A stretch of DNA of 32,000 nt from Promethearchaeota archaeon (GCA_016933055.1 JAFGBS010000034.1:120001-152000); one strand, 5' to 3'. Shown: positions 6,938 through 20,888, counted from the stretch's first letter. Notes: generated from the letters alone by a model not told the origin. Numbers and translations are program-made.

Positions 6938-8008
6938 TTATTTACTAGAAGTGGTTTTCTTGGTAGATTTTTTCGATTTTGAAATTTTCATGCTCTCCGA
7001 TTTCGAGCTGGTCGATTTCTTTTTAGCAGTTTTTTTTGGTTTAGTCTCTTCTTTAGCAATTTCTTCTGCTAACTTTTCATCTTTGCCTAATTCCACTTTT
7101 TCTTCATGGTCATGATCGTGATCATGAGCTTTGGGTTTCTTGTAGGAGTGAATGAAATTCACAGTGTCAATGTCCAAGTTATTTTGAAGATCATAGGCTA
7201 CATAAAATTCTGTCATACCAATATTTTGCTGCAATCCAAAGAAATCAGGTGTTCCGATGTCCAATTTGTTTTCGGATTTATTATAGTCTAACTTAAATTT
7301 GTCTTCTTCGACCCCAGGAATCCGACGTGAGATATATGCGAACACTTTGTCCTCGAATTCATCAATTCGTTCAAGGGGTTTTAATCGATATTCCACTTTT
7401 CTTCCGGCAAGAGGATGATTAAAATCAACACGTATTCTTCCTTGGTCTACCGTGATTACGGTACCAGTTTTTCCAGTTTTCTCATTACGAAATTCCATCC
7501 CAAGTCGTGGTTTGTCCTTGGCTATTGCCATGAATTTCTTATATGACATTTTTTCGATATTTTTCGGATCTCGCTCTCCAAACGCATCCTTAGGGTCTAG
7601 AACCACCGTTTTCTCATCTCCATATTTTAGCTCACCCGATGCAAGCATTTCTCCAAGTTTATCGAAAATAACTCCGCTTTTTTCCCCTACTAATACTAAT
7701 TCTGGAGTGTAAAGATGGGACTTTTCAGGATCATAATTTGGTAATTTCTTTGCATCTTCTTCATTCGACACTTGAAAAGTCACAGTAGTTTTATCTGTTG
7801 CTGTTGGTACCGTTTTCCCAAGTAGATCGAGCTTAATAAGATCGCCTTTCTTCACAAGTTGCCCTATATATCCTATTTTCTTCTTAGAGGATTTATTCAC
7901 GGTTTCCTTTTTAGTGGTTTCTTTCTTCTTCTTATTCGATTCTTTCACTGATGATTTTTTTTCAGAATCATTGTTCTCTGTTTCTGTTGCCGTTTGTTTG
8001 CTAGACAT
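6938..8008 (-). CDS. Long-type archaeal FKBP peptidyl-prolyl isomerase (SlyD-like) with Lys-rich tails
   Basis: Motifs PKDAFGERD and RVDFNHPLAGRKVEY, the archaeal C-terminal extension, and HDHDHDH at 7126..7106. The start is placed at M15 of the track ORF (ATG 8008) because the longer start overlaps the divergent gene. Confidence 0.9.
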   Translation of the reverse strand: MSSKQTATETENNDSEKKSSVKESNKKKKETTKKETVNKSSKKKIGYIGQLVKKGDLIKLDLLGKTVPTATDKTTVTFQVSNEEDAKKLPNYDPEKSHLYTPELVLVGEKSGVIFDKLGEMLASGELKYGDEKTVVLDPKDAFGERDPKNIEKMSYKKFMAIAKDKPRLGMEFRNEKTGKTGTVITVDQGRIRVDFNHPLAGRKVEYRLKPLERIDEFEDKVFAYISRRIPGVEEDKFKLDYNKSENKLDIGTPDFFGLQQNIGMTEFYVAYDLQNNLDIDTVNFIHSYKKPKAHDHDHDHEEKVELGKDEKLAEEIAKEETKPKKTAKKKSTSSKSESMKISKSKKSTKKTTSSK

Positions 8009-8105
8009 TATCAATTCCCAGCTTAATGATGGATAATTCGTTTTATCCATGTTTAATAGATTTTTTGCTTTTAAAGCTTCAAGTTCATTTTCTCATAAGA
8101 TTAAA

Positions 8106-9014
8106 ATGGGAATTCATCAAATCTTTTCTAGAGGTTTTAATGTGATTATATTTATTACCGCACAACCGACGCATTCGACGAAAAATCAAATCATTAACAC
8201 TTTTATGAATGCAAAAGTTCCTTACATAGTCTTAGATCCATCAATACCATGGTTCAAATTGCGCAAAAATTTTCAAAATGATGTATCAATTTGTTTATTA
8301 GCTCCCGACCATCCAAATGCATTTAAAATTTGTTCGTATTTACTGGCTAAAAATATTTATGTACTCAATCCACCCAGAACCACACTGTTGTGCAAACAGA
8401 GAATTGAAGTAAATATTCGATTGAATTCGATTCTCACCCAATTTAAAAAGGATAATCCCGTCTGTCCTATCCATATTCCTATGTCCCGCTATTATAAAAA
8501 AAAAGGATTGTTACTAACTCAAGTAAACGAAATTGATTTCCCGTTTGTGATAAAATATCCGATAAACCATTTAGGAATCCATCATGTGGAACTTATTCAA
8601 AATATGCAAGATCTCTCAACAAAAATACCGAAATTCTTCAATAAAAATGGTATTTACACTGAACAATATGTGGAAGCACAAGAATTGCTCATCAAGACTT
8701 ATCATTTAGGAGATACAACCATTACTCAACAAGAATCTCACCACCTAACGTTGGAAGCGGGTAATAAATTGAAGGAAATATTATTTGAGAGTAAAAATCA
8801 ACGGAAAACTATTGATACTCCTCTTATCTTAAAAAAATTTACAGAATTCATAGCAAAAGAAATGCCTATTACATTTTTTGGGTTAGATCTTTTACGTTCG
8901 TATGATGACCAATACTGGGTAATTGATTTTAATGATTTTCCTGGATCCCGTGGAATATTTAATGCAGGAGAGATTATTGCCAATTGCATAATCGATAAAA
9001 TAAAAGGAAATTAA
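8106..9014 (+). CDS. ATP-grasp enzyme, ITPK1 (inositol phosphate kinase)-like
   Basis: Motifs VLNP, FPFVIK, EQYV, LIKTYHLGD, FFGLDL and VIDFNDFPG. The ATP-grasp fold is confident; ITPK1 specificity is inferred. Start uncertain (ATG 8049 or 8106). Confidence 0.7.
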   Translation: MGIHQIFSRGFNVIIFITAQPTHSTKNQIINTFMNAKVPYIVLDPSIPWFKLRKNFQNDVSICLLAPDHPNAFKICSYLLAKNIYVLNPPRTTLLCKQRIEVNIRLNSILTQFKKDNPVCPIHIPMSRYYKKKGLLLTQVNEIDFPFVIKYPINHLGIHHVELIQNMQDLSTKIPKFFNKNGIYTEQYVEAQELLIKTYHLGDTTITQQESHHLTLEAGNKLKEILFESKNQRKTIDTPLILKKFTEFIAKEMPITFFGLDLLRSYDDQYWVIDFNDFPGSRGIFNAGEIIANCIIDKIKGN

Positions 9015-9029
9015 GCCAGATAACTGGCT
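9014..9029. terminator. Small hairpin between convergent genes
   Basis: AGCCAG-ATAA-CTGGCT, a perfect 6-bp stem at the stop of the ATP-grasp gene and just beyond the SECIS. Function is not established. Confidence 0.3.
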
Positions 9030-9049
9030 AAGTGTATAGTGTAATGCAT

Positions 9050-9120
9050 AATCGATGACCCTTTGCAAGGGCGTCCATTCCATCCGCATGCTTTAGGATG
9101 AAATTTCATTCCTATCGATT
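9050..9120 (-). ncRNA. Eukaryote-type SECIS element in the 3' UTR of the hdrA-mvhD selenoprotein operon
   Basis: mRNA sense: AAUCGAU-AGGA-AUGAA-AUUUCAUCC-UAAAGCAUGC-GGAUGGAAU-GGAC-G-CCCUUGCAAAGGG-UC-AUCGAUU. It has a 7-bp helix I, an AUGA/GA non-canonical quartet, a 9-bp helix II and AAA in the apical loop. It starts 10 nt after the mvhD stop. Confidence 0.85.
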
Positions 9121-9130
9121 TGTTTTCAAG

Positions 9131-9604
9131 TTATTTTTTGGGTTTAGTTTCTTTATTCGTATTAGATTGAGGTTTTGGTTTTGGTGCGAGTTCTCTGAGC
9201 GGTGAGGGTCCAAGAGCGTTTATTTTTTCGAACATTGCCACCATCGTTTTTTGGAATTTTTGTCCTTCAGCAGCCGAACAATAGTGCATTTGTAACCGTT
9301 CGGACTCTAATCCCACAGAATCCATTACTTGTTGGAGGTATTTAACATTTCTACCACCATGTTTCGCTCCCGTTAGGTAATTACATTCGTGTTCATAACA
9401 TCCTACGACCGCAACACCATCTGCTCCTTTTCCGAATGCTCTCATGATCATGTCCGAAGACACTCGACCTGCACAGCTGACAAGAACCGGCCTAACAATG
9501 GTTGGATATTGCGCTCGAATAGTTCCCGCCATGTCTCCTGCCCCATAACCTCATTTCCAGCACATAAAAGCTACTATATGTAATTCCTTCTGAATTTGAG
9601 TCAT
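9131..9604 (-). CDS. mvhD: MvhD/VhuD [2Fe-2S] subunit, selenoprotein (Sec at codon 18; 157 aa)
   Basis: From ATG 9604: MTQIQKELHIVAFMCWK-UGA-GYGAGDMAGTIRAQYP..., continuing in frame into the 133-aa track ORF. The UGA at 9553-9551 aligns with the second Cys of FCNWCSFAGAD in the paralogue at 16756..17226. Confidence 0.93.
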
Positions 9605-9612
9605 TTTTGGTT

Positions 9613-9618
9613 ACCTCC
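9613..9618 (-). promoter_or_regulatory. Shine-Dalgarno-like site between hdrA(Sec) and mvhD(Sec)
   Basis: GGAGGT directly after the hdrA TAA and 8 nt before ATG 9604. This supports the upstream start and therefore read-through of the UGA. Confidence 0.7.
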
Positions 9619-11589
9619 TTACTCTGCTACTCGATATAGTAGATTATCGATTACAGCATTGAATTGGGAGCCACGTGAGTTTCGAACGGTGATGGCTTGA
9701 CTGGGACAAGTTTGTGCGCAGATTCCACAACTTCTGCATTTGACTTCGTCTACGACCGCAAACTTCTGTACGGGATCTAGTGCAATTGCGTCATATGGAC
9801 AATTTTCTACACACAAACCGCATTTTGAGCATCGTATTTCGTCTACAACGGCTTTTTCCATACGCATTCGGTATTCTCCCGGTCTCATGATGATATTTGC
9901 AGATGATGCTGCTCCTTTCGCCTGCATAATCGTTTCAGCAATCGATTTCGGACCTTGAGATGCCCCTGCTAAAGATATTCCTACAACATTTGTATCCACT
10001 GGATTAAGTCGAGAATGATATTCTTTGAAGAATCCATCGGGACTACGTTCCAGTTTGAGTTTATCATTGAGGATACCAATCCCTTGGGCTGGTTCCATAG
10101 CGGAGGATAATACAACAAGATCGAATTCGTGTTCTTTCATTTCTGAGCAATCTTGCAGCATATCTTGCATGTAAACCTTGAGATTATGCGTTTCAGCGTC
10201 TTCTTGTATACGTGGGATAGATGCCTTGACGAATTTTACCCCATATTTTCTGGATTCAAGGTAATATTCTTCATAGGCTTTCCCCCCTGCTCGTATATCA
10301 ATGAACGCTACTATGACGTCAATGTTGGGATCATGTTGCTTGATTAGTTTCGTGTTCTTAATGGAGATTAAGCAACACACACCTGAACTGCAATGTCTAT
10401 TTCGTTTGAGATCACGCGAGCCTACACACTGGATGAACAGTATCTTATGAGGGTGTTTCCCATCGGATGGTCGAACGATATTCCCATAAGTTGGTCCATT
10501 TGGAGCGAGAATTCGTTCCAGTTCTAGTTGGGTTATAACATTGGGATATTTACCGTATCCAAGATACCCCTCTTGTCGGAATTCGTCCCAACCTGTGGCA
10601 ACGATTATTGTACCGACTTTCAGTTTCTTAATCTTATCTGTATCATCGAAATTTATGGCATTCAGTTCGCATTCGTCCATACATAATCCACAACGGATGC
10701 ATTTGGTCATATCTATCTGAGCAACCATCGGAACTGCTTGGGCAAATGATACATAGATTGCTTTTCTCGGACCGAGATTCTGGTCAAATTCGGAAGCACT
10801 ATAAGCAGGACAGACTTCTTCACATGCCCTGCATCCATTACAATCGCTATTAGTGTATTTTGCGTGTTGTAACACTTCCACTTCGAAGTTTCCGACGAAA
10901 CCCGAGACACTTTGCACTTCGGTAAGTGTCATGAGGTGAATGTTTTTATTTCGATTCACATCCAGCATCAACGGACCCAAGATTCAAATACTGCAGTCGT
11001 CAGTAGGAAAGGTTCGATCTAACATGGCCATTTTTCCACCTATCGTCGCAGCTTTTTCGACTAGATAAACTTCATATTCCGAAGCTAAGTCTAGTGCTGC
11101 TTGCATTCCTCCAATCCCTCCACCTATTACAAGCGCTTTTTTTTCGACAGGGAACGTTTTTTCAGGAATTGGTTCCAAGAACATTGATCGCGCAACTCCG
11201 GCACGAATGAGTTCTTCGGCTTTGAGTTGGGCTTTATCTTTTTCCTTCATATGAACAAAGGAGACATGCTCTCGGATATTCACGAACTCCAGATACGATG
11301 GATCTAATCCCGAATCTTCCAAAACCGCCCTAAATACAGGTTGATGGGTTTTTGGCGTGCAAGCGGCCACTATGATCCGATTCAGCTTATGTTCCTCAAC
11401 AGCTTCTTTTATTAAATCCGCTCCGGAGGTAGTACATAAACTAATATTATCGGTGGAATGCACCACGTTAGGTAGTTTTCCTGAGTATTCAGCGAGTTTC
11501 TCTGTGTCTAGTGTACCAGCTATGTTAACACCGCACCGGCAAACAAAACACCCAATACGAATCTCTTTTTCAGCGTTTTCTGCTGCCAT
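9619..11589 (-). CDS. hdrA: Heterodisulfide reductase subunit A, selenoprotein (Sec at codon 202; 656 aa)
   Basis: The two track ORFs (10984..11589 and 9619..10980) are in one frame, joined by TGA ATC: FPTDDCSI-U-ILGPLM versus FPTMDCSA-C-ILTPKM in the Cys paralogue. The FAD motif GGGIGG, the QCVGSRD..CSSGVCC motif and four CxxCxxCxxxC motifs are present. Confidence 0.95.
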
Positions 11590-11739
11590 TTGAGTCCGTA
11601 CCAGTTTTTTGTTGTTGGTTGGTTACGTTTACTTCACACATCTGGGCTTAAAATATTTTTCTTCGGTTTTTCTTTAACTTTGGAAGTGAATTTCTATTTT
11701 TCCCGTGGTCTTAAAATCTTGGATATACCATTATCACCT

Positions 11740-12396
11740 ATGATTGATCATGGATTTACCCACAGTAAATTGAATCGATGGTTAGAACAAATTGTAAAAA
11801 AATATGACAGAGGGAGAATCACACCCAACCAACTAACCATATCAGCATTATTTCTTGGTTTGCTGGCATCAGGATTTGTCTATCTTAGCGGAATTTCCCC
11901 CATATCATGGGAAATTATCTATCTCGTGTTAGGGGAGTTTGCATTAGCAACTTCTTTTATCTTAGATGTTTTTGATGGGATATTAGCGCGTAATCGTAAT
12001 CCTACAGTATTTGGAGGGATATTAGATATTTTTTGCGATCGGACTGTTGAGATTTCCATTTTAATAGCTATCGTCTCAACAGCTCCCTCCTATCTCTTGT
12101 GGAGCGGGTTGTTTTCCCTCGCATCCATTGTGCTATGCATAACCATCTTTCTGTTAATGGGCTCAGTACAAACAGAGCGTATACCCGAAGAGAAAAAAGT
12201 GATTTTCTATACTCATGGTATAATGGAGAGGACGGAAACGGGGATTTTCCTGTTAGTTTTAATTGCAGTCCCATTTCCATTATTTCGCATGAGTATATTG
12301 TGGATCTTTTTCGGTTTGGTGCTTCTAACTGCTCTTCAACGTCTATATATTGCCTATAGAGTATTATCGAACTCCATACGTATAAAACATAAATAA
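11740..12396 (+). CDS. CDP-alcohol phosphatidyltransferase family protein
   Basis: Signature DVFDGILAR..GGILDIFCDR, TPNQLT and several TM segments. The start is moved to ATG 11740 because the upstream 50 codons span the divergent promoter. Confidence 0.92.
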   Translation: MIDHGFTHSKLNRWLEQIVKKYDRGRITPNQLTISALFLGLLASGFVYLSGISPISWEIIYLVLGEFALATSFILDVFDGILARNRNPTVFGGILDIFCDRTVEISILIAIVSTAPSYLLWSGLFSLASIVLCITIFLLMGSVQTERIPEEKKVIFYTHGIMERTETGIFLLVLIAVPFPLFRMSILWIFFGLVLLTALQRLYIAYRVLSNSIRIKHK

Positions 12397-12516
12397 TTAG
12401 ATATTTCAGTAACTATTTAACTGCAATATCGGTACATTCAAATATAGAATAAAAACGAGACGTTTTTGTTGCTAATTTAACTAACTGTTATAAATCATAT
12501 CTTCTAGGAAAAAAAA

Positions 12517-13827
12517 ATGGCAGATCTTTCTGGATTAGTATCCGATATTCACAAAAAGACCCCTTCGAAAATCGGAGTAATTTGTGTCAACTGCATACTG
12601 CATCACAGCCCGTTGGAAAATCTTATCCGATTTTTGAAAAAATACAGTATTTATTTACCGGAATCCACACTAAACGTTCGTTCTGAATTGGTATATTATA
12701 TTTATTATCATTTTTTTACAGAATATCAAAATGATCAGATTATTCGGCAAATGTATTCCGATCCCGTAGAGTATATTGGAGATGTGATCGCTAAAGACGA
12801 ACTATTTAAGATTGGTTTACAGAAACACGATTTTATAGCAAAACACGAACTTATTGATGTGTTTGCCGACTACTGTGCGGATATGGGGATCATCACCTTT
12901 GAAATGGATCCGAAGGATGAAATCAATTCCATGATGGATTTATTTTTAACAAAACGTGTACCTTTGTTGAAAACCGAAACGGTATTTGTTCGTACGGGTC
13001 ATGAACTGGAAAATGGTGGTTATTCAGAAGAACTGATCAAAAATATTCAAGAAGCTAGCAAAAAGGCGATTTGGACAGTATTTGTTACAAGTAGTTATGG
13101 TGCCTATGTAGTGGGATTAGATCGGCTTATCAAAGACATGGAGAGGTTAAATATATGGTTGTACGTAGTAGACCCTCTACATAAGAATGTATATGGAATA
13201 ACCAAAGGAAAAAAGAATCAAATCGATGAGAATTTAAAAAATCAATTAGAACAAAGCTTACCATCCCAACCCATTCGTGCTCCCTCACAATTAGGAAAAA
13301 TCAGCAAATATGATTTTAGTGAACGAGATTCCTATAATCCCAACAAATTTACAACTTTTTCCATATTAAAATCCGATATTTATGGGATGTACTATGAAAA
13401 AACAGAACCAAATCACAAATTCCGCGATATCTTTCGTAGTTTGCTAATTATTGATCCCGTATCAGGTCTAAATATTTTTTCCATGAAAAGTCAGACACAA
13501 AAAATTGATGATGTAATCCTTTCTGGATTTCTTTCGGCACTAGATAGTCTTGCTTTAGAAATAGGAACTAAACAAGAGGGAGCTAAAGAAAAAGAAATTA
13601 ACTACCAGGGATTCATTGTGCAAATCATCTCGGGGGATTTGTTGAATATAGCATTATTTTTGACAAAACCAGCGGATCAGATTCTGAAAGAGCGTATGAA
13701 CCGCTTTATCCACCAGTTTGAGTACGTCTATCGAGATAGCATAACAAAATATAAGGAATCGGGTAATGTGGCAGTATTTCCTGAGAGTAGAATTAAAAAA
13801 TTGGCAATGGATATTCTCTCTATTTAG
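12517..13827 (+). CDS. Asgard-type protein with a C-terminal longin/roadblock-like domain
   Basis: The last roughly 130 aa (SLLIIDPVSGLNIF..DDVILSGFLSAL..EINYQGFIVQIISGDLLNIALFL) fit the Asgard longin-like pattern. The middle region resembles a PD-(D/E)xK fold (inference). Confidence 0.65.
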   Translation: MADLSGLVSDIHKKTPSKIGVICVNCILHHSPLENLIRFLKKYSIYLPESTLNVRSELVYYIYYHFFTEYQNDQIIRQMYSDPVEYIGDVIAKDELFKIGLQKHDFIAKHELIDVFADYCADMGIITFEMDPKDEINSMMDLFLTKRVPLLKTETVFVRTGHELENGGYSEELIKNIQEASKKAIWTVFVTSSYGAYVVGLDRLIKDMERLNIWLYVVDPLHKNVYGITKGKKNQIDENLKNQLEQSLPSQPIRAPSQLGKISKYDFSERDSYNPNKFTTFSILKSDIYGMYYEKTEPNHKFRDIFRSLLIIDPVSGLNIFSMKSQTQKIDDVILSGFLSALDSLALEIGTKQEGAKEKEINYQGFIVQIISGDLLNIALFLTKPADQILKERMNRFIHQFEYVYRDSITKYKESGNVAVFPESRIKKLAMDILSI

Positions 13828-16755: not shown

Positions 16756-17226
16756 TTATTTCTTGAAATATTTATTGAAAGGACCAGGTCCAATTTTCTT
16801 GATCTCTTCAGAATATTCTTTAATCAATTCCGTTAGTTCTGCACCTTCACTTGCTGAGATGAACTCAAATCGGACACGCTTGGGGTTAATTCCGAATTGT
16901 TCAATCATCCTAAAGAGAAGAGGCATCCTACGGGCGGTTTTATAATTACCCTCAACATAGTGGCAATCTCCGAGATGACACCCACATATCAGCACGGCGT
17001 CTGCCCCTTCTTTAAGTGCTTCTAATATCCAATGGGCTTCGACTCTCCCACTGCACATCACGCGCATTATGCGGAGATCAGCAGGGCGTTGCATTCGGCT
17101 TGTTCCCGCTTGGTCAGCACCGGCGAAACTACACCAATTGCAGAATATTCCGAAAATAAATGGTTTCCATTCCTTTGGTGGTTCAAGTTCATGTTTGGTT
17201 TCTGTTTTCTTTTCAGCTTTAGCCAT
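16756..17226 (-). CDS. mvhD: MvhD [2Fe-2S] subunit, cysteine form
   Basis: FCNWCSFAGADQAG, MCSGRV, GCHLGDCHY, ISASEG. Confidence 0.96.
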   Translation of the reverse strand: MAKAEKKTETKHELEPPKEWKPFIFGIFCNWCSFAGADQAGTSRMQRPADLRIMRVMCSGRVEAHWILEALKEGADAVLICGCHLGDCHYVEGNYKTARRMPLLFRMIEQFGINPKRVRFEFISASEGAELTELIKEYSEEIKKIGPGPFNKYFKK

Positions 17227-17227
17227 T

Positions 17228-19207
17228 TCAATATACCCCTCCTTCTTTCAGAACGGATCGGATGATTACATCTAGTTGTTCTTCCTTGAAATGATTCTGG
17301 GCAATTGCTCCAAACGGGCAGGCAGCTACACATGTTCCGCAACCCTTACATTTAGCAGGGTTTATAACCGAGATCCCGCTTATTTTATCAAACGTTATCG
17401 CTCCAAACGGGCACATCGAGTTGCATGCTTTACATCCGGTGCATATTGCTTCATCAATTACTGCAAAATATGGTTCAATTTCGACCTCTCCCTTAGCCAT
17501 TAATGCCGCTGCCGAGGAAGCAGCTCCTTTCGCTTGAGCAACTGCATCGGGAATATCCTTGGGACCTTGAGACACACCAGCTATAAAAATCCCATCGGTT
17601 AATGTATCAACTGGTCGCAGCTTTGGATGTGCTTCCATAAAAAATCCATCCTCGGTTTTTTGAATACTGAGTAAGGAAGCAATTTTATCCGAGTCATCAC
17701 GTGCTTCTATTCCAACGGATAACACGACCATATCTACCTTAATTTCGACTGGTACTTGGAGTAATGTGTCTTCTCCACGGAGCCAAATACCTTTATCCTT
17801 GGGATCTTCATAGACTTCAGAAAGACGCCCTCGAATAAACATAATTCCGTATTCACGACTAGCTATTTCGTAAAATTCTTCATAACCTTTACCGAATGCA
17901 CGGATATCCATATAAAAGATGTAAATTTTAGCGTCTGGATGTTTTTCCATATATTGCCGTGCTTGTTTCATAGCATACATACAACATACACGAGAGCAAT
18001 ATTTGTGTCCTCTTCCAGGGTGAAAATCACGTGATCCCACACATTGGATAAACGCGATACTATGGGGGGCGGTGAGATCGGAAGGTCTCACAGGTTTTCC
18101 CAAGGTTGGACCATATGATGAAAGAAGTCGCTCCATCTGCATGGAAGTAATTACATTATCATATTTTTCATATCCATATTCCTTCAGTGCAGTGGGATCG
18201 AACGGATCAAATCCGGTAGCGACGATTATGGTACCTATATCCAGTTTCACGAATTTGTCTTTATCGTCATAGCGAATGGCATCGGGTTCACATACAGACG
18301 GATCCGCACAAATCCCACATTTTATGCAATGATCCATATCTATCGTGTAATAACCCGGTACGGCTTGCGGAAATGGTAAATACGCCGCCTTGCGCAAAGA
18401 TAAACCCAAATCGAACTCATTGGGTACGGTTACAGGACATTCTTCTGCACAATTTCCGCAACCTGTACATTTTTCTGTATCAACATATCGAGCTTTTTGG
18501 CGTACGGTAACCTTGAAATTGCCAACATATCCCTCGACATTATCTACTTCGGAGTATGCCATTAACGTTATATTTTCATGCTGATTGACATCAACCATTT
18601 TTGGGGTTAGAATACAAGCGCTACAGTCCATAGTAGGAAAGGTTTTATCCAATTGAGCCATATGACCACCAATTGTGGCAGTCTTCTCGACAAGATAAAC
18701 ATGAAAATTTTGTTCAGCCAGATCCAACGCTGCATTAATTCCCGCTATTCCTCCTCCGATAACCAGTGCGTTAGGAGTAACTTTGACTTTTTGGGGTTGG
18801 AGGGATTCTAACTTGGAAACTTTCGCCACTTGCATACGGATGTGGTCTTTAGCGATACGTGAGGCTCCTTCTTTATCCTTCATGGATATCCAAGAGGAGT
18901 GTTCACGGATGTTAGCTTGACTGAATAGGAATTTATTCATACCGGCACTTTCAATTGCACGGCGAAATGTAGGTTCATGCATACGAGGCGAACATGCTGC
19001 AACAACTACTCGATTAACTAGACCTTCCTTTATATCGTCTTTTATCATAGATTGGCCAGTATCTGAACACATAAACTTGTACTGACGGACCAAATTTACA
19101 TTTGGCAGAGTTTTCGTAAACTCTTCGAGTTCATCCATATCAATTACCCCTGCGATATTTACACCGCAGTGGCATAGATATACGCCGATTTTAAGATCCT
19201 CTTCCAT
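17228..19207 (-). CDS. hdrA: Heterodisulfide reductase subunit A, cysteine form
   Basis: CHCGVNI, AACSPRMHE, GGGIAG, DKTFPTMDCSACIL, QCVGSRD..CSRVCC and four ferredoxin motifs; 659 aa. Confidence 0.97.
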   Translation of the reverse strand: MEEDLKIGVYLCHCGVNIAGVIDMDELEEFTKTLPNVNLVRQYKFMCSDTGQSMIKDDIKEGLVNRVVVAACSPRMHEPTFRRAIESAGMNKFLFSQANIREHSSWISMKDKEGASRIAKDHIRMQVAKVSKLESLQPQKVKVTPNALVIGGGIAGINAALDLAEQNFHVYLVEKTATIGGHMAQLDKTFPTMDCSACILTPKMVDVNQHENITLMAYSEVDNVEGYVGNFKVTVRQKARYVDTEKCTGCGNCAEECPVTVPNEFDLGLSLRKAAYLPFPQAVPGYYTIDMDHCIKCGICADPSVCEPDAIRYDDKDKFVKLDIGTIIVATGFDPFDPTALKEYGYEKYDNVITSMQMERLLSSYGPTLGKPVRPSDLTAPHSIAFIQCVGSRDFHPGRGHKYCSRVCCMYAMKQARQYMEKHPDAKIYIFYMDIRAFGKGYEEFYEIASREYGIMFIRGRLSEVYEDPKDKGIWLRGEDTLLQVPVEIKVDMVVLSVGIEARDDSDKIASLLSIQKTEDGFFMEAHPKLRPVDTLTDGIFIAGVSQGPKDIPDAVAQAKGAASSAAALMAKGEVEIEPYFAVIDEAICTGCKACNSMCPFGAITFDKISGISVINPAKCKGCGTCVAACPFGAIAQNHFKEEQLDVIIRSVLKEGGVY

Positions 19208-19244: not shown

Positions 19245-20258
19245 TTAAGATTCGGTTTTCACCGATTGTTTTTGTAATTGTTTATAATCATATCCCAATT
19301 CCTTGAAAATTCGCGATAGAATTGGTTCTTGGTCCACAAATGGGGGTACTCCTTTAAGATTGTGATGTTTTACTAAACCTAAATCATTCGGATGCATTCC
19401 CATTGCAAGCCCCAGTAATTGGGTATAATAGAATACCGGAATTGCAAAAGGTGCGGAAATTTCATCCTTGAATATGCTGTTGACCTCAATTTGTCCAAGA
19501 TCCAATTGTAACATACAGAAGGGACACATCACCACGATGCATTCAGCTCCTGCCTCTCTCATCATTTCTAATTTATGCCGCGTGAAATCTAATGATACTT
19601 CTTTAATAGCGGATCGCACTCCTCCACCCGCTCCACAGCACATATGTTTATCTTTATAGTCTGTGCTTTCACATCCGATTACCTCCACTAATTCATCAAA
19701 AAACCTTGGATCTTCCGTTTCTCCCCCCCACGGTCGTATCGCACTGGGTTTTGTTAAATGGCATCCATAGTGGACTGCACATTTCAATCCACCTAACAAA
19801 CGGGTTACTGAATCGCGGATTTTATCCATTCCAAGATCCATGTATAATACTTCTGCGAGGTGTTTGACTTTTATTGAACCTTTGAATTTTTTATCAATTT
19901 TTACAAGATGGTTGTTGACAAAAGTGCGCTTTTTCTCGTCAGTTTTGAGTTGATGATCTACGTCAATGAGAGTTCCGTAACACCCATTGCACATTGTTAC
20001 AAGATCTGCATTATTCTCTTCAGCGATTGCGATATTTCGAGCTCCGATAGCTAACCATGTGGGAATATCAAACGATCGAAATACTCCGGGAGCTGGGCAA
20101 CAGCTAGCTCCTTGCATATCTTTTAAACGAACGCCGAGTTCATTCAGTACATTGCGAGTTGCCTGCTCTACGAAGGGATAGCGATTTGGAATGACGCAGC
20201 CGAGGTAAAACGAATATTCTGGGGGTGTTATTTCTTCGTGACTCAAATTTTTGTGCAC
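19245..20258 (-). CDS. hdrB: Heterodisulfide reductase subunit B
   Basis: Two CCG domains: SCCPAPG..CNGC and HYGCH..CCGAGGG..CPFC. Confidence 0.96.
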   Translation of the reverse strand: MHKNLSHEEITPPEYSFYLGCVIPNRYPFVEQATRNVLNELGVRLKDMQGASCCPAPGVFRSFDIPTWLAIGARNIAIAEENNADLVTMCNGCYGTLIDVDHQLKTDEKKRTFVNNHLVKIDKKFKGSIKVKHLAEVLYMDLGMDKIRDSVTRLLGGLKCAVHYGCHLTKPSAIRPWGGETEDPRFFDELVEVIGCESTDYKDKHMCCGAGGGVRSAIKEVSLDFTRHKLEMMREAGAECIVVMCPFCMLQLDLGQIEVNSIFKDEISAPFAIPVFYYTQLLGLAMGMHPNDLGLVKHHNLKGVPPFVDQEPILSRIFKELGYDYKQLQKQSVKTES

Positions 20259-20888
20259 CTATTTCTTGATTTTTGATTTTCGACCTTTACGTGTCGCCTT
20301 TTCTTCCTTTTTTTCCGGTTTTTCATCCTTTTTACTGTTAGTATTTACAGGAGGTTTGTATTCCACCAGTTTATCGAACCCCAATGACTTCACTAGGGTT
20401 TGTACCTCTTTTACGGCGGAAGGATATTTATGTACGGTCGGGGGAACAGGATCTAAATCATAACTCTCCCTTAAGTCATTCCATTTTTTATCATTAATTG
20501 GAACACCGTGTCCAGTATCAATTAAAAGATGAGTCAGTGATTTATGAGGAGCTAAAATTCTACCCTTTTGGGTCGCGAGATTTCTTAATTTAATGATGAT
20601 ATCTGTTACTGGTACCTGTCTTGGGCAACGTTCGAAACAAGTGTAGCAAGTGGAACATAACCATATATCAGGGTCATCTAACACCTGATCCAACCCTAGA
20701 AGTGCTTTTCTTATGACTGCACGGGTTCTTAATGCCGTTCTCCGACCGCTTGGACAACTCCCTGTACAAGTTCCACATTGATAACAAGCTCGGATTAATT
20801 CAAGATCGTCTTTCACAATTTCCTCGGATATTTTCGCCGATATCTTATCAATTCGATTTCTCTTTATGTATTCCATCTTTCTAGTCAC
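20259..20888 (-). CDS. hdrC: Heterodisulfide reductase subunit C with a basic C-terminal tail
   Basis: CYQCGTCTGSCP and WLCSTCYTCFERCPR. The start may be ATG 20876. Confidence 0.95.
   Translation of the reverse strand: MTRKMEYIKRNRIDKISAKISEEIVKDDLELIRACYQCGTCTGSCPSGRRTALRTRAVIRKALLGLDQVLDDPDIWLCSTCYTCFERCPRQVPVTDIIIKLRNLATQKGRILAPHKSLTHLLIDTGHGVPINDKKWNDLRESYDLDPVPPTVHKYPSAVKEVQTLVKSLGFDKLVEYKPPVNTNSKKDEKPEKKEEKATRKGRKSKIKK

Follow-up and report, generated by a model that had tools for sequence, protein, structure and literature searches.

Introduction

The closest described systems to the locus considered here are the HdrA-VhuD selenoprotein pairs of Loki archaea, for which Mariotti 2016 (PMC4989117) reported a single lokiSECIS (SECIS, selenocysteine insertion sequence) on a probable polycistronic mRNA and an hdrA gene that never ends in UGA. 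Huang 2024 (PMC11227280) extended the same reading to hundreds of Asgard genomes, in which hdrA and frhD "almost all share the same eSECIS-like structure", and in both studies hdrA and vhuD/frhD are always neighbours (PMC4989117 and PMC11227280). Here we examine such a pair, hdrA-mvhD (mvhD is also named vhuD), in a stretch of 32,000 nucleotides (nt) from Promethearchaeota archaeon (GCA_016933055.1 JAFGBS010000034.1:120001-152000; hereafter the window). One SECIS located past the end of mvhD very probably serves an in-frame UGA in each of the two genes, read as selenocysteine (Sec), from a two-gene transcription unit. The finding is correct and already known, having been published in 2016 and 2024; a preliminary description of the locus had suspected that the layout might already have been noted, and Mariotti 2016 (PMC4989117) indeed puts the interpretation in nearly identical words.

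The window pair has the published arrangement of Loki HdrA-VhuD pairs (PMC4989117), with hdrA upstream of vhuD on one strand and a very short spacer between them, a lone AUGA...GA SECIS after vhuD, an hdrA stop that is UAA or UAG, and an expected action over about 2 kb. The preliminary description set eukaryotic SECIS elements, which act from the 3' untranslated region (UTR) of monocistronic mRNAs, beside bacterial ones, which sit right after the UGA; it omitted the euryarchaeal SECIS elements, which also lie in 3' UTRs. In Methanococcus, a 3' SECIS functions over separations of 88-679 nt and is not tied to any strict limit of distance (PMC9622424). VhuD of Methanococcales and Methanopyrus resembles the window system in relying on an archaeal 3' SECIS that acts remotely on multiple UGAs and whose structure includes an AUGA and an additional stem; it differs in its GAA_A core, in the placement of both UGAs within a single cistron, some 50 codons from each other, and in that hdrA there has a SECIS of its own. 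Eukaryotic SECIS elements (e.g., that of SELENOP, with its many UGAs) share with the predicted window element the kink-turn AUGA/GA quartet, unpaired apical A's, a position in the 3' UTR and a reach of kilobases, whereas they belong to monocistronic mRNAs, have a longer helix II and use SBP2 as binding protein, which was not found in Loki (PMC4989117). Judged by these features, the window element would work like a eukaryotic SECIS, yet it is not a member of that class by the Rfam SECIS_1 model.

One UGA in each gene and a single SECIS behind them

Each gene of the pair contains only one in-frame TGA, at codon 202 of hdrA and codon 18 of mvhD (coordinates of all features are collected in Table 1). 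The family assignments of the two products are clear, with 746 bits to the NCBIfam HdrA2 model and Pfam Fer4/FAD domains for HdrA, and matches to Pfam FlpD (1.4e-40) and NCBIfam VhuD (8.7e-41) for MvhD. As the preliminary description had proposed, both UGAs fall on conserved Cys positions: U202 lies in an invariant column (DCS-x-[C/U]-IL) that holds Cys in an all-Cys paralogue 5 kb away (window 19207..17231), and U18 corresponds to the second Cys of the CxxC motif in three MvhD paralogues of the same genome. The 14-nt spacer and the use of UAA, rather than UGA, as the stop of both genes likewise read from the sequence as had been described.

The SECIS is placed in a 116-nt convergent intergenic region (9130-9015), with its outer helix beginning 10 nt, and its AUGA 21 nt, past the mvhD stop. 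From this AUGA it is 441 nt to the mvhD UGA and 1,874 nt to the hdrA UGA, which bears out the earlier estimates of about 440 nt and about 1.9 kb. The AUGA on the 5' side of helix II forms an invariant column among the aligned SECIS elements. Depending on where the helix is closed, helix II consists of the A.G mismatch plus either 8 pairs with a 12-nt loop or 9 pairs with a 10-nt loop, sizes that are 1 nt off the lokiSECIS figure of 2016 (9-bp stem, 11-nt loop) and within the ranges of 2024. The apical loop, C-UAAAG...C-G, offers three consecutive A's and, when the closing C-G pair is counted as unpaired, has G9085 as its last nucleotide. Compared with the lokiSECIS of Mariotti 2016 (PMC4989117), the window loop C-UAAAGCAUGC-G is 1 nt longer and less A-rich than the canonical AAAAAUAAUAG, which is the loop found in the sister family. 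The element also agrees with the Asgard eSECIS-like type I (PMC11227280) in its 5'-AUGA_GA-3' core, a stem in the range of 7-15 bp and an apical loop in the range of 8-20 nt. By its AUGA, its GA, the A-run and final G of its loop and its position 3' of a selenoprotein gene, the element has features of a lokiSECIS or Asgard eSECIS-like type I element and is predicted to belong to that class. We note in passing an exact 12-nt direct repeat, TGCATAATCGAT on the plus strand, at 8985-8996 and 9045-9056 of the window (60 nt apart), one copy of which lies within the terminal codons of the convergent ATP-grasp gene, while the other forms the 3' arm of the outer helix; the repeat may be due to chance.

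No leaner version of the module was seen than the window pair, in which HdrA has only the canonical Sec and MvhD has Sec18 together with Cys69 at the second canonical VhuD Sec site. Relative to the Loki HdrA-VhuD pairs of Mariotti 2016 (PMC4989117), it thus has the minimum load of one Sec per gene, with the extra HdrA Sec sites absent. A same-genus relative (L008) has Sec at the second VhuD site (IVGUYEHEC, compared with VVGCYEHEC in the window), which looks like a recent Sec/Cys exchange. Three further hdrA-mvhD modules of the same genome are all-Cys, with no TGA and no SECIS; the one in the window is part of an hdrC-hdrB-hdrA-mvhD cluster, and the one on contig C2 is an hdrA-mvhD fusion.

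Search for a second signal in the unit

If hdrA carried a signal of its own in its CDS (coding sequence) or leader, the 3' SECIS could be serving mvhD only. Such a signal is conceivable, as SECIS-like signals can evade models: the Rfam models are blind even to the real element of this locus, and the published selD lokiSECIS evaded the first Loki model (PMC4989117). Against it, four independent scans of 9000-11800 were negative. A covariance model trained on 15 orthologous SECIS elements of relatives (R1) has one match only in the 32-kb window (53 bits, E 8e-12), in keeping with the earlier remark that the only SECIS-like structure lies after mvhD; with filters off across 8000-13000, the best other sense-strand scores within the hdrA-mvhD unit were 6-8 bits (top score 7.6), which is noise. 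A relaxed SECIS pattern (A/GUGA, N, a stem of 7-10 bp allowing one mismatch, a loop of 8-16, N, GA/AA) has a single match on the sense strand of 9000-11800, at 9109, where shuffled sequences lead one to expect 0.24, and the euryarchaeal GAA_A pattern (a bulge that separates a GC-rich upper stem from the stem below it) has no match over the same range. In the 90 nt that follow each UGA, predicted folding is no stronger than in shuffled sequences (z = 0.0 for UGA202), and no bacterial- or SRE-like local hairpin after either UGA exceeds the shuffled controls in stability. A loose AUGA-stem-GA pattern applied genome-wide was discarded as far too unspecific, with 128 and 982 matches.

Further evidence comes from relatives of the window genome, five of which have a second, lone Sec-type hdrA with two TGAs and no mvhD behind it. 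Each of these genes is followed, 27-66 nt past its stop, by a SECIS of the same type; hdrA UGAs are therefore served by such a 3' element, which argues against a hidden signal within hdrA. These loci also depart from the statement of Huang 2024 (PMC11227280) that the two genes are always neighbours. The RNAz analysis of the 2016 study likewise yielded no other conserved structure (PMC4989117). The scan for a second SECIS in the hdrA CDS and 5' region that the preliminary description had called for, by covariance model and patterns, thus returned none; neither mvhD nor hdrA with its leader gave evidence of a further signal, and a private hdrA signal appears quite improbable.

The pair as a probable transcription unit

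The hdrA-mvhD pair is flanked by a divergent CDP-alcohol phosphatidyltransferase gene (plus strand) and a convergent ATP-grasp gene. Despite the AT-rich genome, the sense strand has no run of five or more T's from 11802 to 8837, the first such run past the operon being at 8837, and no terminator-like site occurs on it between the hdrA start and the SECIS. The only such site on the sense strand of 8700-11900 is a hairpin that begins 21 nt past the SECIS, and this hairpin is likely the 3' end of the transcript. The 14-nt spacer would leave no room for a promoter or a terminator. From these features taken together, hdrA, mvhD and the SECIS are predicted to lie on one transcript. A sigma-70 promoter scan was set aside, being not meaningful for an archaeon.

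Separate transcription or processing might instead produce an hdrA mRNA without the SECIS, with UGA202 handled by near-cognate suppression or by termination, or with the SECIS acting in trans. The three all-Cys hdrA-mvhD modules of the genome could cover the function if HdrA were lost in this way. This account is nevertheless very improbable, given a spacer that is too short for a promoter or terminator and contains a Shine-Dalgarno-like motif, a sense strand free of T runs and terminator-like sites ahead of the SECIS, and a tight hdrA-mvhD-SECIS order in all 29 complete pairs that we compared, an order that would be needless for a trans-acting signal.

Sec decoding and conservation of the layout

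The genome to which the window belongs (3.76 Mb, 36 contigs, 35% G+C) would by kinship be placed in a Lokiarchaeia-type family. It encodes one tRNA-Sec, a selD gene with one in-frame TGA (160 bits, above the family cut-off) and SepSecS (438 bits); the best PSTK-like (133 bits) and SelB-like (229.5 bits) matches are both below the curated cut-offs, and the gene for the SelB-like factor is at C17:92015-92884. From this gene complement, the organism is judged to decode Sec. That hdrA is split or decaying, with its UGA a true stop between fragments of 201 and 453 amino acids (aa), as standard calling of open reading frames (ORFs) would suggest with its two ORFs (10984..11589 and 9619..10980), is scarcely credible when the TGA coincides exactly with an invariant Cys codon, the protein stays conserved across this point (57-86% identity to Sec-type orthologues in the alignment), the genome encodes Sec machinery and Sec-type hdrA genes with TGA recur in 129 of the 141 sampled genomes of the order.

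These Sec-type genes contain one to four TGAs each, and all hdrA orthologues among the matches listed (150) have at least one. The one-SECIS layout, a survey of which the preliminary description had suggested, is present in the complete pairs of both the family and its sister family. The comparison covered 10 complete pairs in the family (9 besides that of the window) and 19 in the sister family. In all 29 the order is hdrA followed by mvhD, with -29 to +25 nt between them; Sec occurs in both genes, and one lokiSECIS is found at the end of mvhD, where in several loci it overlaps a UGA stop. In every one of the 35 loci that contain its end, hdrA terminates with UAA or UAG. At 13 Cys-only hdrA loci there is no R1 match above 16 bits.

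Table 1. Coordinates of the features discussed. Positions are those of the window unless a contig or locus is named.
Feature	Position	Strand	Remarks
hdrA CDS	11589..9619	minus	656 aa translated with TGA=U; stop UAA at 9621-9619
Sec202 UGA of HdrA	10984..10986	minus	canonical HdrA Sec position, near residue 200
Intercistronic spacer	9605..9618	minus	14 nt, GGAGGTAACCAAAA, Shine-Dalgarno-like GGAGG inside
mvhD/vhuD CDS	9604..9131	minus	157 aa; stop UAA at 9133-9131
Sec18 UGA of MvhD	9551..9553	minus	CWKU, second position of CxxC
SECIS	9050..9120	minus	three-helix junction; R1 match spans 9124-9040
SECIS core and helix II	9077..9109	minus	AUGA 9109-9106; A9105 opposite G9076
Helix II stem and loop	9104-9096 / 9085-9077; loop 9095-9086	minus	9 bp; loop UAAAGCAUGC; from pattern scans
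3' GA of SECIS quartet	9074..9075	minus	G.A/A.G with GA of AUGA; conserved in alignments
P1 outer helix	9120-9114 with 9056-9050	minus	minimum free energy fold of 9124-9040
P3 small hairpin	9058..9072	minus	CCCU-UGCAA-AGGG core, in 3' strand between GA and P1
Terminator-like hairpin	9014..9029	minus	AGCCAG-UUAU-CUGGCU with U-rich tail; only such site, sense strand 8700-11900
Divergent intergenic region	11590..11739	minus	probable site of hdrA promoter; adjoins CDP-alcohol phosphatidyltransferase gene
All-Cys hdrA-mvhD modules	window 16756-19207 and 19245-20888; C17:668552-670941; C2:95625-97934	minus (window)	own genome
Lone Sec-hdrA with own SECIS	L020:3429-3514, L021:3505-3587, L022:3517-3600, L023:3517-3603, L024:1338-1422		relatives
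ORFs of 52-81 aa ahead of R1 matches	L049:1270-1500, L051:1328-1492, L053:1583-1825(-), L060:1583-1813(-), L061:1267-1494, L068:1592-1762(-), L069, L070, L055, L054		sister family

A three-helix fold of the SECIS and its covariation

Folding 9124-9040 by itself recovers as the minimum free energy (MFE) structure an outer helix (P1), the AUGA/GA helix (P2) and a small third hairpin (P3). A first fold of 9020-9135 had given a misleading MFE structure (z = -0.8), and the three-helix fold emerged with the narrower segment and the relatives, nearly all of whose orthologous elements have it as their MFE structure. On realignment of the 15 elements by R1, 83.6% of cells pair, compared with 28-44% with slid partners, and double changes occur in 19 of 20 pairs. 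Each of the three helices has covariation in its favour. Among 25 R1 matches, all but one of them outside the training set, 85.1% of cells are paired (30-53% slid) and 96% in P3, although these matches were picked by R1 itself and are hence biased towards it. For P3, 94-96% of cells are paired, with double changes in three of its four pairs. The SECIS elements of hdrA-mvhD in the sister family reach only 15-29 bits with R1, and their third hairpin is variable, so that the three-helix form is common, not universal.

The main texts of Mariotti 2016 (PMC4989117) and Huang 2024 (PMC11227280) describe an internal loop and a lower stem and do not mention a third hairpin. The window element differs from the lokiSECIS of the former (PMC4989117), whose text is without such a junction, in lying within a three-helix junction, and from the model of the latter (PMC11227280), a plain internal loop with lower stem, in that the 3' side of this "internal loop" is a conserved hairpin. 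The position of P3 relative to AUGA/GA fits a k-junction (Wang et al. 2014, PMC4005666), a likeness in which secondary-structure topology only was compared; k-junctions themselves are known from TPP riboswitches. We tentatively suggest, as a possibility that we rate at somewhat below even, that the shared signal is a three-helix, k-junction-like element with a conserved UGCAA-type loop, common to the SECIS elements of this Loki family; that P3 is part of the platform for an archaeal SECIS-binding factor and aids action over 2 kb across a cistron; and that R1 also picks selenoprotein genes missing from the Asgard lists.

Several individual elements deserve separate mention. The SECIS elements of selD and of a CC/Se-like gene (see below) in the same genome have the same three-helix frame. 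In a same-genus relative (L008:903-993, minus strand), the apical loop of the hdrA-mvhD SECIS contains a tandem duplication (UAAAGCC UAAAGCGC), and a second very similar SECIS (L056:1501-1586, minus strand) is located about 1.1 kb downstream of the first on the same strand.

Candidate selenoprotein genes outside the published lists

Matches to R1 point to putative selenoprotein genes that are absent from the published Asgard lists. In the genome of the window itself, a 97-aa ORF with an in-frame TGA and the motif SSUCGS (C17:287985-288382, or L038:1188-1585) is followed 19 nt past its stop by a three-helix SECIS with 38 bits to R1. NCBIfam relates its product, with a score below the cut-off (7e-8), to NF041239, "CC/Se motif family (seleno)protein". 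Among 14 genomes of the Loki family to which the window genome belongs, 11 have matches to this CC/Se-like protein, 16 in total, each with one TGA. Huang 2024 (PMC11227280) names seven families of Asgard selenoproteins, and the CC/Se family is not one of them.

In the sister family, 10 genomes or more have very short ORFs of 52-81 aa with an R1 match right behind them (Table 1). Their products have a basic N-terminus, one hydrophobic helix and a Gly-rich tail with the TGA in GGG(G/T)-U-x-C, and a Pfam search of these ORFs gave no match; they look like an undescribed family of small membrane selenoproteins. The Gly-rich Sec tail is reminiscent of eukaryotic SelK/SelS. A second kind of small ORF, likewise for a tiny membrane protein of the sister family, stands ahead of an R1 match in two genomes only (L050:1648-1845, minus strand, and L058:1217-1465, plus strand), with two hydrophobic helices, a TGA in S-U-G past the first helix, and a conserved EYLMIPAI-x-CY-x-GA.

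Discussion

Every computational test that we applied agrees with the central claim of the preliminary description, that one SECIS acts across a cistron; the single transcript and the recoding of both UGAs we infer from the arrangement of the sequence. Some points do weigh against this interpretation. Rfam models, both the eukaryotic SECIS_1 and the bacterial SECIS, give no match at E <= 10 across 8500-12500, and the probable assignment of the element as a SECIS draws on the published description and our own covariance model. An internal mvhD promoter is possible from the sequence, though it would still leave hdrA transcripts needing to reach the SECIS. Finally, a Sec-type hdrA paired with a Cys-only mvhD, the cleanest natural test of a cross-cistron effect, does not occur among the 29 pairs.

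If one SECIS does serve both genes, the hdrA-mvhD mRNA would end just past a single Loki-type element whose AUGA/GA core should form a kink-turn. The 3' SECIS would most likely recruit the Sec-specific elongation factor with Sec-tRNA(Sec), either directly or by way of an unknown SECIS-binding protein, and looping of the mRNA would deliver the factor to ribosomes at UGA202 (1.9 kb upstream, across mvhD) or at UGA18 (0.44 kb upstream), with Sec presumably inserted at each. UGA stops that lie near the element, such as those of mvhD in some relatives, would not be recoded, whereas a distant UGA would be; the UAA stop of hdrA can be understood in these terms, because a UGA at such a distance would be read as Sec.

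A 3' signal that recodes UGAs in two cistrons over about 2 kb would be unusual in the tree of life, and the window contributes a further instance in minimal form, each gene having a single Sec. As a two-gene unit with divergent and convergent neighbours and exactly two UGAs, the locus would make a clean, uncomplicated system for tests. A SECIS shared in this way bears on the origin of the eukaryotic selenocysteine system, which may derive from an Asgard-like one, a point already made in 2016.

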